Positions 16,146 through 24,792 of a DNA stretch of 64,000 bases are shown here, piece by piece (the stretch's first letter is position 1; each line of letters opens with the position of its first letter). Source of the stretch: Burkholderiales bacterium. Lineage in GTDB: Bacteria > Pseudomonadota > Gammaproteobacteria > Burkholderiales > JAHFRG01. Under the pieces are notes generated by a model. The model was not told the DNA's origin, searched no databases, and saw nothing but the letters and a program-made list of their open reading frames with translations. The position numbers and the translations under genes are program-made. The stretch covers positions 16,392-80,391 of the forward strand of contig DASZZH010000028.1 in the NCBI GenBank assembly GCA_035543335.1, read 5' to 3'.

Positions 16146-18017
16146 GTGAATGCCAACCCGAAATTCTTAAGTGCCACCGCCCACGTTGATGAAGCGGCGG
16201 TGAAACCGTTGCCGAATTCGCGCAAGGTTTATGTCGAAGGCAGCAGTCCCGACATCCGGGTGCCGATGCGTGAAATCGTTCAATCCGACACGCCCGCTTC
16301 TTTCGGCGCGGAGAAAAATCCGCCGCTTTATGTCTACGACACCTCCGGCCCTTACACTGACCCTGCGGCAAAGATTGATGTCCGCGCCGGGCTTCCCGCT
16401 TTGCGCGAAAAATGGATACTCGAGCGCAATGACACGGAAAAACTCTCCGGCCCAAGCTCCGAATTCGGCAGCCGCCGTCTGACCGATCCCAAGCTGGCGG
16501 AACTGCGTTTCAATTTGAAGCGCAAGCCTTTGCGCGCCAAACCGGGCATGAATGTCACGCAGATGCACTATGCGCGCAAGGGCCAAATCACGCCGGAGAT
16601 GGAATTCATCGCCGTCCGCGAGAACCAACGCTGCGACGAGCTTTCCGAATTGCTTACCCACCAGCATCCGGGGCAGGATTTTGGGGCCTCAATTCCCAAA
16701 TTGATTACACCGGAATTCGTGCGCGATGAAGTGGCGCGCGGCCGGGCGATCATTCCCGCCAACATTAACCATCCGGAAACCGAGCCGATGATCATCGGCC
16801 GCAACTTCCTGGTGAAAATCAACGCCAACATCGGCAATTCAGCCATCACCTCCTCGATTCAGGAAGAAGTGGAAAAAATGACTTGGGCCATCCGCTGGGG
16901 CGGCGACACGGTGATGGATTTGTCCACCGGCAAAGACATTCACGAAACGCGCGAGTGGATTATCCGTAATTCGCCGGTGCCCATCGGCACCGTGCCGATT
17001 TACCAGGCATTGGAGAAAGTAGACGGAAGAGCGGAAGAGCTCACTTGGGAAATCTATCGCGATACTTTGATCGAGCAGTGCGAGCAGGGCGTGGATTATT
17101 TCACCATTCACGCCGGAGTGCGGCTGCCGTTTATTCCGCTCACTGCGAAACGCATGACCGGCATTGTCTCGCGCGGCGGCTCGATCATGGCCAAATGGTG
17201 CCTCGCGCATCACAAGGAAAGTTTCCTCTACACCCGCTTCGAGGAAATCTGCGAAATCATGAAAGCGTATGACGTGAGCTTCAGCCTGGGCGACGGCCTG
17301 CGCCCCGGCTCGATTTACGACGCCAACGATGAGGCGCAGATCGCTGAATTAATAACTCTCGGCGAGCTGACCGACATCGCCTGGAAACACGATGTGCAGG
17401 TCATGATCGAAGGCCCGGGCCACGTGCCCATGCAGCTCATCAAGGAGAACATGGATTTGCAATTGAAGTATTGCAAGGAAGCGCCGTTCTATACTCTCGG
17501 GCCGCTCACCACCGACATCGCGCCGGGCTATGACCACATCACGTCTGCAATAGGTGCGGCGATGATAGGCTGGTACGGCACTGCCATGCTCTGCTACGTC
17601 ACGCCCAAGGAGCACCTCGGGCTTCCCGACAAGGACGACGTCAAAGACGGCATCATGGCTTACAAGATCGCTGCGCATGCCGCCGATTTGGCCAAAGGCC
17701 ATCCGGGCGCGCAAATTCGCGACAACGCTTTATCCAAAGCGCGCTTCGAATTCCGCTGGGATGACCAGTTCAACCTCGGCCTCGACCCCGACAAGGCGAA
17801 AGCTTTCCACGACGAGACCCTGCCGCAGGAAGGCGCCAAGCTCGCCCATTTCTGCTCCATGTGCGGCCCGCATTTTTGTTCGATGAAGATTACCCAGGAC
17901 GTGCGCGATTACGCAGCCAGCCACGGCTTCTCCGAAACCGAAGCCTTGGAGAAGGGGATGGAGGAGAAGGCTGTGGAGTTTGTGAAGCAGGGCGGAGAGG
18001 TCTATCAAAAGGTGTAA
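16146..18017 (+). CDS. thiC: Phosphomethylpyrimidine synthase
   Basis: 623 aa, GTG start; full-length ThiC including the C-terminal [11 protein letters not shown] Fe-S motif. Confidence 0.95.
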
Positions 18018-18039
18018 ACTAGACGGACGCTCTTCAAGT

Positions 18040-18267
18040 TTGGAGACCGCAATGAAGAAAAAACATCAGTTAACCGCGATTATCGAGAAAGAGGGCAACG
18101 GCTACGTGGCGCTGTGTCCGGAATTTGATATCGCCAGTCAAGGCTACACCATTGAGGAAGCGCGCAGTAACCTGCAGGAAGCCGTGGAGCTTTTTTTCGA
18201 AACCGCCGATCCCACCGAAGTCAAGCAACGCCATCCGCCAATCCGGCCTGCCGCGAAATTTATTTGA
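18040..18267 (+). CDS. HicB-like (UPF0150) antitoxin, apparently orphan
   Basis: 75 aa; LTAIIEKEGNGYVALCPEFDIASQGYTIEEARSNLQEAVELFFE is the HicB N-terminal fold pattern. I recognise no HicA partner. Confidence 0.65.
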   Translation: METAMKKKHQLTAIIEKEGNGYVALCPEFDIASQGYTIEEARSNLQEAVELFFETADPTEVKQRHPPIRPAAKFI

Positions 18268-18336
18268 GACTTCATGAAGTGGTGCCGCTTTGCGGCGGCC
18301 ATCTCAAACGACCGCTTAGACACCGCGTTCGCGGGC

Positions 18337-19764
18337 TTAGCCAGGAAACATTCCGTGTCCCGGTGCCAGCACATTCTTCGGGTCGAACCGCGCCTTCGAG
18401 GCTTGGACCGATTTCCAAACGGGTCCATAGTGCTGGATCCAATCGGCCTGCGAAAACGGAATCGCGCTCGTCGTCAATCGTGTTCCGCCCATAGCGCGCG
18501 CCCGCTCGTATAGTGTGCGATTCATCGCGATCGCGGACGATATATCAGCCGATGCCGGCAGAACCCGCGAAATCTGGAATCTGAAGACGATATCTTCGTT
18601 CGGCAAACGGACGAGCGGACGCTTCATGGAGCTCCTCCTCCATGCAGACATGCGCGGAGTCACAAAGGCAGCCTCTTCAGGAGTGGCAAGCATTCTCGAT
18701 GTGTACTCGACGTATCGAGATGAGGGCAAGCAGAGGTACACAAAGGGTTTTAGCGTGGGAGCAGTACAGATAGTGCATACTTCTTCGCGGCGATAGTACT
18801 GCTCATAGGTCATCACTTTGGTGGTTTGGTTCGCAAACCTCAACCCCGCGAGCAGTGGCGCCTCACTTGGAGTATTCGGAGCGTCATAGAAAACTCCGCC
18901 TTCGACGTAATACGCGATGCCACCGCCCGGCTGTGCGGCGCCCCTCCCGTCGAGGTGGTTGAAGCGCCCAACCTTCGCGAGAAACGCCAGGTCAGCGGAG
19001 GCTGTCTGAAAGTCCTCGTAGTTCAACTTGAAGAACAGGACGTGAGTGGGTGCGGCAACCAGCTCCATGACGACTTTCACGATAATGCCGCATTGACCCA
19101 GCCCGCCAAGCATGGCGTTGAAGAGATCACTGTTGCGTTCGTCGGAACAGGTCACGAGCTGCCCATCCCCCGTCACCACCTGGAGTTCCAGAACACGGTC
19201 GACCTGAAAACCTTGGGTGTACGTCGTCACGGCAAATCCACCCGTACTGATCGTGCCGCCGACCGAAAGGAAGATATCGGCGATCACCGGCAGCGTTCGC
19301 TTGGAGGCGTTCGCTGCATCCAAAACGGCGCTCCACTTTGCTCCGGCGCCAACCTCGACGGCGCCCGAATTGATGATGCGGACGGAATTCAAACTACTGG
19401 AGTCGATGACGACTCCCCCCTCGGCCTGAGTTTGGCCAAAAAATGAATGGGCCTGACCCCGCATCGCAACTTTGAGGCCATGGCGGTTCGCGAACTGAAC
19501 CAGCTTCACGATATCTTGAGCCGAGCCGGGTTTGAGCACAGCGATCGGCAGCCGATGCACGATGCGTCCAAAGTCGTTCGCAGCCGCCTGCAGCGCAGCA
19601 TCGTCGAAGAGCAGTGTCCCGCTGAGATCCGTCAGGTCATTGCGCAGCAGCAGCCCCGGCGGCAGCGACGGCGCCAAGGAACTGCATGATGGCTGTAGCG
19701 CAAGGAGCGCTGCTCCGCCTGCGAGCCTTTTGACGAACTCGCGGCGAGAAATTATTCGTTCCAT
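18337..19764 (-). CDS. Tat-exported FAD-binding oxidoreductase (PCMH-type, cytokinin-dehydrogenase-like)
   Basis: 475 aa; twin-arginine signal MERIISRREFVKRLAGGAALLAL; FAD-binding domain pattern ...VAMRGQAHSFFGQ...GGTISTGG. Confidence 0.75.
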   Translation of the reverse strand: MERIISRREFVKRLAGGAALLALQPSCSSLAPSLPPGLLLRNDLTDLSGTLLFDDAALQAAANDFGRIVHRLPIAVLKPGSAQDIVKLVQFANRHGLKVAMRGQAHSFFGQTQAEGGVVIDSSSLNSVRIINSGAVEVGAGAKWSAVLDAANASKRTLPVIADIFLSVGGTISTGGFAVTTYTQGFQVDRVLELQVVTGDGQLVTCSDERNSDLFNAMLGGLGQCGIIVKVVMELVAAPTHVLFFKLNYEDFQTASADLAFLAKVGRFNHLDGRGAAQPGGGIAYYVEGGVFYDAPNTPSEAPLLAGLRFANQTTKVMTYEQYYRREEVCTICTAPTLKPFVYLCLPSSRYVEYTSRMLATPEEAAFVTPRMSAWRRSSMKRPLVRLPNEDIVFRFQISRVLPASADISSAIAMNRTLYERARAMGGTRLTTSAIPFSQADWIQHYGPVWKSVQASKARFDPKNVLAPGHGMFPG

Positions 19765-19853
19765 GATTTACCTCCCTTGTTCTGACGGCAGTCTTGTCGC
19801 ACGGGTGTCTAACTGGAAATGGACAGACCTCTCTAATCCGGAATTTCCGACGA

Positions 19854-24037: not shown

Positions 24038-24050
24038 TATACGGCGTATA
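24038..24050 (+). promoter_or_regulatory. Palindrome TATACGGCGTATA within a TTGACT...promoter-like region upstream of mazE
   Basis: Read directly. A third half-site ATATACG lies at 24058-24064. Confidence 0.4.
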
Positions 24051-24085
24051 GCCATAACATATACGTCCTGTCTTGGAGCACTGCC

Positions 24086-24331
24086 ATGCAATCACAAAAA
24101 ATTCTGCGTTGGGGCAACAGCCTGGCGTTACGTCTGCCCATGCCGTTCGCGCGCAGCGCGCAGCTGGCCGAAGGCTCCAGCGTCAAGTTGAGCCTTGCCA
24201 AAGGACGAATCATCGTCGAGCCGCTGCACGAGGCCGGTTTGAGTCTTAAAAAGCTGGTGAGTCAAATCACGGCGGGTAATCTGCACCGCGAAACCGACAC
24301 CGGGCAAGCCAAGGGTTTTGAAGTGTGGTGA
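24086..24331 (+). CDS. mazE: MazE/AbrB (SpoVT) type antitoxin
   Basis: 81 aa; MQSQKILRWGNSLALRLPMPFARSAQLAEGSSVKLSLAKGRIIVEP is the looped-hinge-helix AbrB-fold pattern. Confidence 0.85.
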   Translation: MQSQKILRWGNSLALRLPMPFARSAQLAEGSSVKLSLAKGRIIVEPLHEAGLSLKKLVSQITAGNLHRETDTGQAKGFEVW

Positions 24332-24676
24332 AACGCGCTTCGCGCTACCAGCCTGACCGCGGTGATTTGATGTGGCTGGATTTTAATCCCCAGGCAGGAC
24401 ACGAGCAGGCGGGCCGGCGTCCTGCTCTCGTCGTCTCCCCACTTGCTTACAATGCAAGAACCGGATTGGCGCTGTGCTGCCCCGTCACCAGCCATATCAA
24501 GGGCTATCCGTTCGAGATTTTGGTCCCCGATGGATTGAAGGTTTCCGGCGCCGTGCTTTCCGACCACGTCAAGAATCTGGACTGGAGCGCGACGCGCGGA
24601 ATTCATCGCGCGGTTGCCACAACGCGAGTTGGAGCAAGTTATTAATCGAGTCATTCTGCTGTTGAAGGGCAAATAA
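24325..24676 (+). CDS. mazF: MazF/PemK-family endoribonuclease toxin with probable C-terminal frameshift
   Basis: Track ORF 24325-24645: RGDLMWLDFNPQAGHEQAGRRPALVVSP...GYPFEI. After DHVKNLDW (about 24585-24597) the family C-terminus ARRAEFIARLPQRELEQVINRVILLLKGK* continues in another frame to 24676. Confidence 0.75.
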
Positions 24677-24691
24677 GTCCTGTCCAGCGCT

Positions 24692-24792
24692 CTGATGGAA
24701 AAATTCCTGAAGCCGAGGCGCTGGAGCGCGGCATGGAGGAAAAAGCGGTAGAATTCCGGCAGGCGGGTGCTGAGGTGTATCGAAAGCTATGA
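24692..24792 (+). repeat. Chimeric scar: HigA-like 5' fragment fused to thiC 3'-end-like copy R1.4
   Basis: ctgatggaaaaattcctgaagcc|gaggcgctggagcgcggcatggaggaaaaagcggtagaattccggcaggcgggtgctgaggtgtatcgaaagctatga; in the ThiC frame it reads [28 protein letters not shown]. Confidence 0.8.

Follow-up and report, generated by a model that had tools for sequence, protein, structure and literature searches.

The subject of this analysis is a 64,000-nucleotide stretch of contig DASZZH010000028.1 (assembly GCA_035543335.1, positions 16,392 to 80,391) from a Burkholderiales bacterium, called the window below, in which an intact thiC gene is followed by four displaced copies of a thiC 3' end (T1 to T4) with toxin-antitoxin genes lying between them. 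Our comparison with related loci suggests that the thiC-bacA region is an accretion hotspot, and we consider it reasonably probable that this hotspot grows by gene-end displacement without a recombinase of its own, where an incoming thiC tail, accompanied by the small operon that follows it in the donor, would take over the gene and leave the former tail downstream as a dead fragment. In the literature that could be searched, nothing was found that describes thiC as a site of integration or a toxin-antitoxin hotspot. The features that carry the argument are the following, with negative numbers counting nucleotides back from the end of the gene.

16146 to 18017, plus strand: thiC, an intact open reading frame (ORF), whose last 130-150 nt are a swapped-in V-type end.
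18273 to 18291, plus strand: detached 5' piece of T1, the remnant (a 17-nt trace) of a hicA-stop/thiC'(-165) junction, from local alignment with L001 3262-3323.
20082 to 20152, plus strand: T1, displaced T-type thiC 3' end, from nhmmer and the match to L002.
21888 to 21985, plus strand: T2, displaced thiC 3' end with an internal TAG, from nhmmer and pairwise comparison.
23873 to 23953, plus strand: T3, displaced T-type thiC 3' end, from nhmmer and pairwise comparison.
24691 to 24796, plus strand: a 24-nt higA2' remnant and then T4, from comparison with relatives.
42099 to 43178, plus strand: bacA/uppP, on the far side of the variable region (Pfam BacA), a recurrent thiC neighbour in related lineages.

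The copies were located with nhmmer, using a model of the thiC end across the whole 64-kb window. Four plus-strand matches were obtained, at 20082-20152 (E 8.5e-20), 21888-21985 (5.7e-19), 23873-23953 (9e-21) and 24702-24796 (2.5e-28), and the model found nothing further in the 64 kb besides the gene end itself. The original prediction, made from the letters of this DNA alone, had singled out four segments here as translating into homologues of the ThiC C-terminus, and both the segments and their translations are as it described. A 38-nt core occurs three times at no more than one mismatch, against 0.00 occurrences expected in shuffles. Over the 63 nt common to the copies, T1 and T3 differ at 2 positions, T1 and T4 at 3, and T3 and T4 at 5 (92-97% identity), so that the predicted spread of 1-3 differences among three copies has to be widened to 2-5 of 63 nt, while the accompanying estimate of two-thirds identity to the resident end stands at 68% for each of T1, T3 and T4. 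T2 is the most diverged of the four, with 75-79% identity to the other copies and 62% to the resident end, and it contains the TAG in frame.

Pieces that are so short (63-100 nt), directly oriented and placed between small cassettes, as in integron arrays, invite the reading that they are a generic intergenic repeat, such as a repetitive extragenic palindrome (REP) or a miniature inverted-repeat transposable element, or else an integron attC site, resembling the ThiC C-terminus by chance. We give this reading next to no credence, since the search with the thiC model, the codon alignment and the folding all refute it. The copies align codon for codon with thiC, in relatives over up to 165-230 nt. 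They occur solely downstream of thiC, in the window as in the relatives, and none lies elsewhere in the 64 kb; they are not a genome-wide REP. In single-strand folding, no fold better than those of shuffled sequences was found for the copies on either strand (z +0.36 to +0.97, or roughly +0.4 to +1.0), which argues that they are not attC-like, and no IntI integrase with an attI site was seen near the array.

Relatives with such ends, referred to here by locus numbers, came from several searches. A pattern back-translated from the T-type peptide was run against the species collection and gave three genomes, a degenerate pattern covering both end types gave 120 metagenome loci, and an exact-protein look-up of HigB gave four short contigs; the exact-protein look-up returned no match for ThiC (in two start variants) or for MazE. 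In L002, L003 and the metagenome contig L013, the T-type end is the working end of thiC. L002 is a metagenome-assembled genome of the "Gammaproteobacteria" (in the GTDB sense), whose 197-kb contig is syntenic with the window at 12-18 kb. There, the DNA behind intact thiC is that found behind T1, and higB, higA2 and an antidote gene come next. T1 differs from the end of this intact thiC at 2 positions of the 63-nt core, and the downstream flank agrees at 59 of 64 nt. Because T-type ends belong to functional thiC genes in these relatives, the T copies can be understood as former or alternative working thiC ends, which bears out the earlier proposal that they derive from a foreign or ancestral thiC.

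The resident end of the window's thiC, in turn, was swapped in. In a sliding comparison, the gene is 93-96% identical to those of L002 and L062 up to about -150 nt, and past this point the identity is 63-71% to L002 and 76-93% to L062. As identity to L002 drops there while that to L062 stays high, the last 130-150 nt are an exchanged segment. Comparison of C-termini with those of relatives identifies the swapped tail as the conserved ThiC C-terminus, of 20-50 codons. The gene is kept whole by a V-type end that is linked to hicBA, with the T-type ends displaced downstream, a feature known from the prophage e14 at icd.

The end types are linked to particular neighbours across 5-8 genomes: V-type ends with hicBA, T1-type ends with higB (its promoter), and T4-type ends with a common remnant flank. 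A displaced V-type copy is present in L001, L003, L013 and L059, always followed by hicB-hicA, and the window's resident end brings the genomes with this association to five. Directly behind thiC in the window is a hicB/hicA fusion that aligns with the intact hicB-hicA of L001, L003 and L059; judging from this alignment, the hicBA remnant appears to have come in together with the V-type thiC end. The hicBA cassette stands at position 1 of the array in the window, at position 2 in L003 and L013, and at position 3 or later in L001. The T4 subtype, by contrast in position, closes the array: together with its remnant flank (MAAEPEQLA...), which is common to all of them, it is the last copy in the window, L001, L003, L013, L062, L085, L122 and L124. 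T4 is the terminal and oldest displaced end, and the constancy of this most distal flank in most relatives examined agrees with the original idea that successive ends were displaced downstream.

Arrays of this kind recur. Ten of the 120 metagenome loci, as well as L001 and L003, have arrays of 2-5 copies, and they fall in two thiC clades. The window has four displaced fragments, L001 four, L003 two and L013 four beyond the gene, with lengths of 36-230 nt. In L013, the gene end and the four displaced copies fit into 4.2 kb, with higA, hicBA, relE/XRE, phd/parE and higB cassettes between them. The second thiC clade (L037, L038, L053, L101 and L110) shows the same anatomy, with a Bro-N cassette at position 1 or 2. 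Overall, the cargo of the arrays comprises toxin-antitoxin pairs and Fic, Bro-N and HNH genes. Hybrid genes are also present: in the soil metagenome contigs L124-L127, an intact thiC has a V-type body and a T-type end over its last ~20 nt, directly followed by higBA. L124 (for example 200-343) has the hybrid thiC, higBA, the antidote gene and T(-69) in this order. On the far side, bacA follows thiC in 27 loci, at a distance of 32-65 nt in four of them (32 nt being an empty site) and of 0.5-6 kb in 23. Whether relatives have thiC followed directly by the membrane-protein gene found at the far side of the window's island had been suggested as a check; the ancestral neighbour in related lineages is instead bacA. 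Given that bacA is 24 kb away in the window and 32-65 nt away in four related loci, the whole thiC-bacA interval (18017-42099) is variable DNA. Upstream of the array lie thiC, a PCMT methyltransferase gene and lipopolysaccharide genes.

The limits of the copies bear directly on the question of how they arose. Their 3' limit is constant, with homology stopping at the stop codon plus ~4 nt, and their 5' limits vary (-36, -63, -69, -88, -110, -120, -150, -165 and about -215/-230 nt). Each 5' limit falls 0-20 nt past the stop codon of the preceding cargo gene, with 4-9 nt of microhomology, as at antidote ttGAGC/gcgg, higA2' cCTGAA/actgagg and hicA acttca/taatgtgcggc. Several of these junctions are found more than once. 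The antidote/T(-69) junction occurs at T3 of the window (where mazEF follows), twice in L001 and once in L124 (there with a near-full-length, frameshifted antidote gene), and its right-hand partners differ: in L001 once a V-type end with hicBA and once the T4 flank, and in L124 the T4 flank. The hicA/thiC'(-165) junction is found in L001, L003, L013 and L059, plus the remnant in the window, and T2 and T4 have one junction in common, higA2'/thiC' at -88. Switches from one end type to the other are seen at about -150 to -130 (the window compared with L002), -56 to -50 (copy b of L001), -45 to -40 (the gene and copy b of L003, copy 2 of L013) and -22 to -17 (intact thiC of L124-L127). Comparison of the aligned ends therefore places the crossovers at no fewer than four positions and gives no indication of a single core. 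The 3' limit of T3 (stop +5) was considered as a fixed recombination site and rejected; a simple internal deletion fits better, since the DNA after T3 matches the DNA after higA2 in L125.

Could the array nevertheless consist of decayed or non-autonomous site-specific elements, resembling e14 or a cis-mobilizable element (CIME), each with a replacement thiC end at its attP and with a tyrosine integrase that was lost or acts in trans? The layout is indeed that of e14 at icd, with direct repeats, an element-borne end that restores the gene and the old end as a downstream pseudogene. The constant 3' limit and the use of the same gene end in two thiC clades point in the same direction. We nevertheless find this explanation unlikely. 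The copies have at least nine different 5' limits, all of them microhomology fusions to cargo stops and none followed by an attP arm, and the end-type crossovers are spread over at least four positions within 130 nt. e14 retains intE and xisE, whereas no integrase or excisionase is seen among the identifiable ORFs of the array cargo. A mirror-image array at the 5' end of another gene, described below, would require a second recombinase system. The original description of the array as a classical signature of site-specific integration into a gene 3' end does not hold in view of the 5' limits from -36 to about -230, the microhomology fusions and the several crossover positions.

The search for recombinases covered both the window and the relatives. 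Pfam detects no integrase among the scanned ORFs of the window (the toxin-antitoxin array and restriction-modification genes at 18-31.5 kb, selected ORFs at 31.9-40 kb, and 40.8-45.6 kb), in line with the earlier statement that none is present. No tyrosine or serine recombinase is found by Pfam in the larger ORFs of the arrays of L001, L037, L053, L062 and L110, and the ORF maps of L003, L013, L085, L122, L038 and L059 contain solely small toxin-antitoxin-like ORFs and defence genes. In all, 13 array loci were located and ORF maps read for 12, with Pfam run on selected ORFs, and no integrase, excisionase or resolvase is among the identifiable array ORFs. Integrases are likewise not among the 25 commonest Pfam families of the 86 clusters of downstream ORFs from all loci, and so are not frequent there. 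As for vehicles, thiC ends of T- or V-type have 0 matches in 2.9 million viral contigs of IMG/VR, and a blastn search of plasmids with the whole array matched toxin-antitoxin genes at ~67-70% identity, never a thiC fragment; both results also speak against site-specific elements.

We therefore return to gene-end displacement and set out how it might work. A cassette would have three parts: the tail of a donor thiC, from a few tens of nucleotides to ~150 nt, through its stop codon; the small operon next to the donor's thiC, usually a toxin-antitoxin pair; and, at the far end, a thiC 3' fragment that was joined to the cargo by an old, presumably illegitimate, microhomology junction. Since thiC sequence would be present at both ends of such a cassette, homologous recombination, probably of the RecA type, could insert it at any related thiC 3' end. 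Entry might follow DNA uptake, with a linear fragment undergoing two homologous crossovers, the left one upstream of the right; alternatively, recombination between two copies could produce a circle that is inserted by a single crossover. With the left crossover, thiC would stay whole and acquire the incoming tail, and with the right one the old tail would remain, no longer functional, ahead of the older cassette. Repeated rounds would build T1 to T4, the thiC fragments acting as homology handles, and the array would later be reshuffled and trimmed by recombination among copies, internal duplication (repeats D5 and D8) and microhomology deletions.

The cargo between the copies, with module genes assigned by Pfam on the ORFs of the window, is given here.

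18040 to 18281, plus strand: decayed hicBA cassette, in which a deletion has joined hicB to the last hicA codons (weak UPF0150 match).
18337 to 19764, minus strand: oxidase with a Tat (twin-arginine) signal, binding flavin adenine dinucleotide (FAD), a later insert inside T1 (Pfam FAD_binding_4, Cytokin-bind).
19854 to 20090, minus strand: C-terminal fragment (78 aa) of a DDE transposase, abutting T1 (Pfam DDE_Tnp_1_4, profile 364-433 of 435).
20254 to 20843, plus strand: higB (20254-20535) and higA (20544-20843) (Pfam HigB-like_toxin, HTH_3).
20855 to 21147, plus strand: higA2, a second higA, frameshifted (intact in L001, L002 and L125).
21164 to 21833, plus strand: orphan "antidote" gene (21164-21484) and XRE helix-turn-helix gene (21504-21833) (ORFs, Pfam).
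21825 to 21900, plus strand: second copy of the higA2 5' end, joined to T2 at cCTGAA/actgagg (repeat D8, 86%).
22044 to 23523, minus strand: hipA (22044-23342) and hipB (23281-23523) (Pfam HipA_C, Couple_hipA, HTH_3; GC 46-50%).
23683 to 23884, plus strand: 3' two-thirds of a second antidote gene, its stop fused to T3 at ttGAGC/gcgg (repeat D5, 93%).
24086 to 24675, plus strand: mazE (24086-24331) and mazF (24325-24645) (Pfam MazE_antitoxin, PemK_toxin).

These assignments agree with the module contents as first proposed, with refinements: the "hicB-like" gene is the hicB-hicA deletion fusion, the oxidase and the insertion sequence (IS) remnant lie inside T1, and mazF looks frameshifted. The frameshift in mazF is probably near its 3' end, where another frame runs on as RRAEFIARLPQRELEQVINRVILLLKGK to a stop (24325-24675). 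Several cassettes of the array seem to be degenerating, because mazF, higA2 and the hicBA remnant are all decayed. As regards T1, the junction trace that survives at 18273-18291 indicates that T1 is the other half of a hicA/thiC'(-165) copy, which was split when the FAD oxidase and the IS remnant were later inserted. The same transposase fragment adjoins a T copy in L001. The modules do not represent four clean, independent integrations, as had been supposed, given that T2 and T4 have one junction, that the T3 junction recurs in L001 and L124, and that T1 was truncated by a later insertion.

These repeated junctions raise a further alternative, in which unequal crossing-over within one genome multiplied a single displaced fragment in tandem, along with its neighbours, and deletions followed, with no repeated horizontal acquisition. 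Pieces of module 2 do recur at T2, T3 and T4 (D8 at 86%, D5 at 93%, and the 24-nt higA2 remnant before T4), the T2 and T4 junctions are identical, and T1, T3 and T4 are 92-97% identical to one another. As an account of the entire array, we regard it as quite improbable, since each module has unrelated cargo (hicBA, higBA, hipBA at 46% GC, mazEF), and the resident end is another allele, at 68% identity, which four other genomes have in association with hicBA. Cassettes also come in a different order, with hicBA before higBA in the window and higA before hicBA in L003 and L013, and relatives hold other cassettes between such copies (relE/XRE, phd/parE, Fic, MNT/HEPN, Bro-N). Internal duplication has probably contributed, but is not the whole story.

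Certain points weigh against recombinase-free displacement itself. The evidence is all comparative, and no insertion or excision event was observed. For the V/T hybrids, the crossovers at -56 to -50 and -22 to -17 have 5-10 nt of identity around them, a short length for exchange of the RecA type. The model does not account for cargo stops standing so close to the thiC fragments, which we attribute to deletion bias. The relatives were read over 8-15 kb round the site, so that a trans-acting recombinase elsewhere in the genome is possible, and a rare integrase may be hidden in the 86 clusters beyond the 25 commonest families. As to which process created a junction, Campbell insertion or one-sided illegitimate joining, the 5' parts of the two copies in L003 are near-identical, with 3 differences in 57 nt, and gene conversion could have erased the signal.

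Gene-end fragments are also present at other genes of the same island, as listed below.

24826 to 25000, plus strand: remnant ORF start (MAAEPEQLARGKIDQLL...; MAAEPEQLARGKIDQLLIAANW, with an HsdR-N-like motif) fused to a decayed glmS 3' end, directly after T4.
31614 to 39612, plus strand: R2 array, in which the promoter and 5' end of a membrane-protein gene recur as five displaced copies (31614-31734, 32921-33002, 34133-34253, 35068-35188 and 36525-36645).
39491 to 39931, plus strand: the membrane-protein gene, intact, whose start is the sixth R2 copy.

The displaced R2 copies share the region around the start codon and are truncated at differing 3' points, with the resident copy the most divergent. 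Two Fic genes, a SocA/Panacea pair and an ABC transporter are set apart from one another by these copies. On the island's far side, R2 is the mirror image of the thiC array, which fits the second hotspot that had been suggested there. The glmS fragment matches GlmS residues 571-599 (E 2.5e-5, phmmer against the PDB) and stands before an island with a 480-aa ORF and a type III restriction-modification system (25098-31504). No tns genes accompany the fragment at 24880-25000, and the sole transposase sequence is the 78-aa DDE_Tnp_1_4 fragment. Fragments of gene ends at three genes argue for a general process and against an att site specific to thiC. We put forward, as a tentative possibility, a general recombinase-free system in which fragments of a housekeeping gene's end on either side of a small toxin-antitoxin or defence operon would make it mobile by serving as portable homology arms, so that any related genome could acquire the cassette at that gene and keep the gene functional. 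It may operate at several genes (the thiC 3' end, the membrane-protein 5' end and possibly the glmS 3' end), and would give an ordered, growing array like that of an integron with neither integrase nor attC.

The closest system in working principle is that of the rhs genes, with analogous orphan modules at cdiA and mafB. In rhs C-terminal displacement, core fragments are strung behind the intact gene and incoming tips push the incumbent downstream, for which two-step homologous recombination via a circular intermediate has been proposed, with no dedicated recombinase (Jackson et al. 2009, BMC Genomics 10:584, PMC2935791). As at rhs, the gene here is intact and its own 3' fragments are strung out behind it; the length of their conserved part varies, every fragment remains joined to the DNA that arrived with it, and exchange is confined to homologous genes. 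Insertion and excision by homologous recombination between the conserved parts would fit the hybrid copies and scattered crossovers of the thiC arrays, though some of these crossovers lie in very short identities. The rhs genes encode polymorphic toxins, whereas thiC encodes a housekeeping enzyme; its swapped tail is conserved and has no new function, and instead of a toxin tip plus immunity gene the payload is a separate toxin-antitoxin or defence operon. What is selected is presumably the cargo and an intact thiC, and not protein diversification as in rhs.

Among integrase-based cases, e14 (and phage 21) at icd is the nearest. In E. coli K-12, the boundary of e14 is 165 nt short of the icd stop, and icdC, a pseudogene of 165 nt, marks its far end, with intE and xisE present. 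In both e14 and the thiC array, the element supplies a new 3' end and the original end is left downstream. However, e14 is a single 15-kb prophage with a recombinase and one fixed boundary, whereas the thiC cassettes are of 0.8-2 kb with variable limits and several crossovers. At fda of Streptococcus thermophilus, the integrative and conjugative element (ICE) ICESt1 and CIMEs undergo tandem accretion at one att site, with repeats of constant extent that the ICE integrase recognises. Non-autonomous modules in a row and direct repeats derived from a gene 3' end are common to that locus and ours, but att repeats of constant extent were looked for at the thiC array and not found. The cassette arrays of the Vibrio superintegron are rich in toxin-antitoxin cassettes, and new cassettes enter next to a fixed site. 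The thiC array is similar in its compact, mostly co-oriented one-operon cassettes, many of them toxin-antitoxin, parted by a repeated element; it differs in that the repeat is a fragment of a coding gene with no hairpin, and not attC, and in having no IntI. Nor does it resemble Tn7-like elements, which have tnsABC(D) and terminal repeats by the 3' end of the target gene. Two further processes use homology alone or in part: Neisseria minimal mobile elements, where homologous recombination in conserved flanking genes moves the cassettes that lie between them, and homology-facilitated illegitimate recombination, where one-sided homology and a microhomology join trap foreign DNA in naturally transformable bacteria. 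To our knowledge, neither has been described as leaving ordered displaced gene ends that act as portable homology arms.

Other observations in the window concern the DNA outside the array. A sequence of 50-70 nt is present in two tandem copies between rfbC and rfbA (6039-6163, 8122-8187 and 3228-3280 being involved). It is similar to part of rfbB (76-85% identity) and to a third site near 3.2 kb, and could represent either a further gene-fragment repeat or a small family of intergenic repeats. A vapBC-like pair (7049-7674, minus strand) is wedged between rfbA and rfbB, where self-BLAST revealed no gene-end duplicates flanking the site. Two more genes of toxin-antitoxin type outside the array are a Gp49/RelE-like gene (2785-3162, minus strand) and ccdB (41670-41987, minus strand). 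The waaF-kdtA interval (13387-13790) has short tandem or dispersed repeats of ~40-120 nt with 86-92% identity around a DUF559 endonuclease-like gene, and in L002 (1466-1900) the same interval is expanded with proline- and glycine-rich repeat ORFs. Over bacA and the genes of major facilitator superfamily transporters (42000-45000), the AT skew is strongly negative, at -0.17 to -0.31, probably from T-rich coding sequence of membrane proteins.

If gene-end displacement does build the thiC array, the general recombination machinery alone would be needed for ordered accessory arrays to form at a housekeeping gene, and what look like attachment sites would be by-products of earlier insertions that can be reused as homology handles. 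Tip displacement in the style of rhs and cdiA would then extend from polymorphic toxins to an ordinary biosynthetic gene. Such hotspots, with an insert of 24 kb here and an interval of 32 nt in some relatives, would be missed by island finders that rely on integrases or tRNA sites. For chromosomal toxin-antitoxin loci, displacement of this kind would offer a concrete route of spread that calls for no mobile-element genes.

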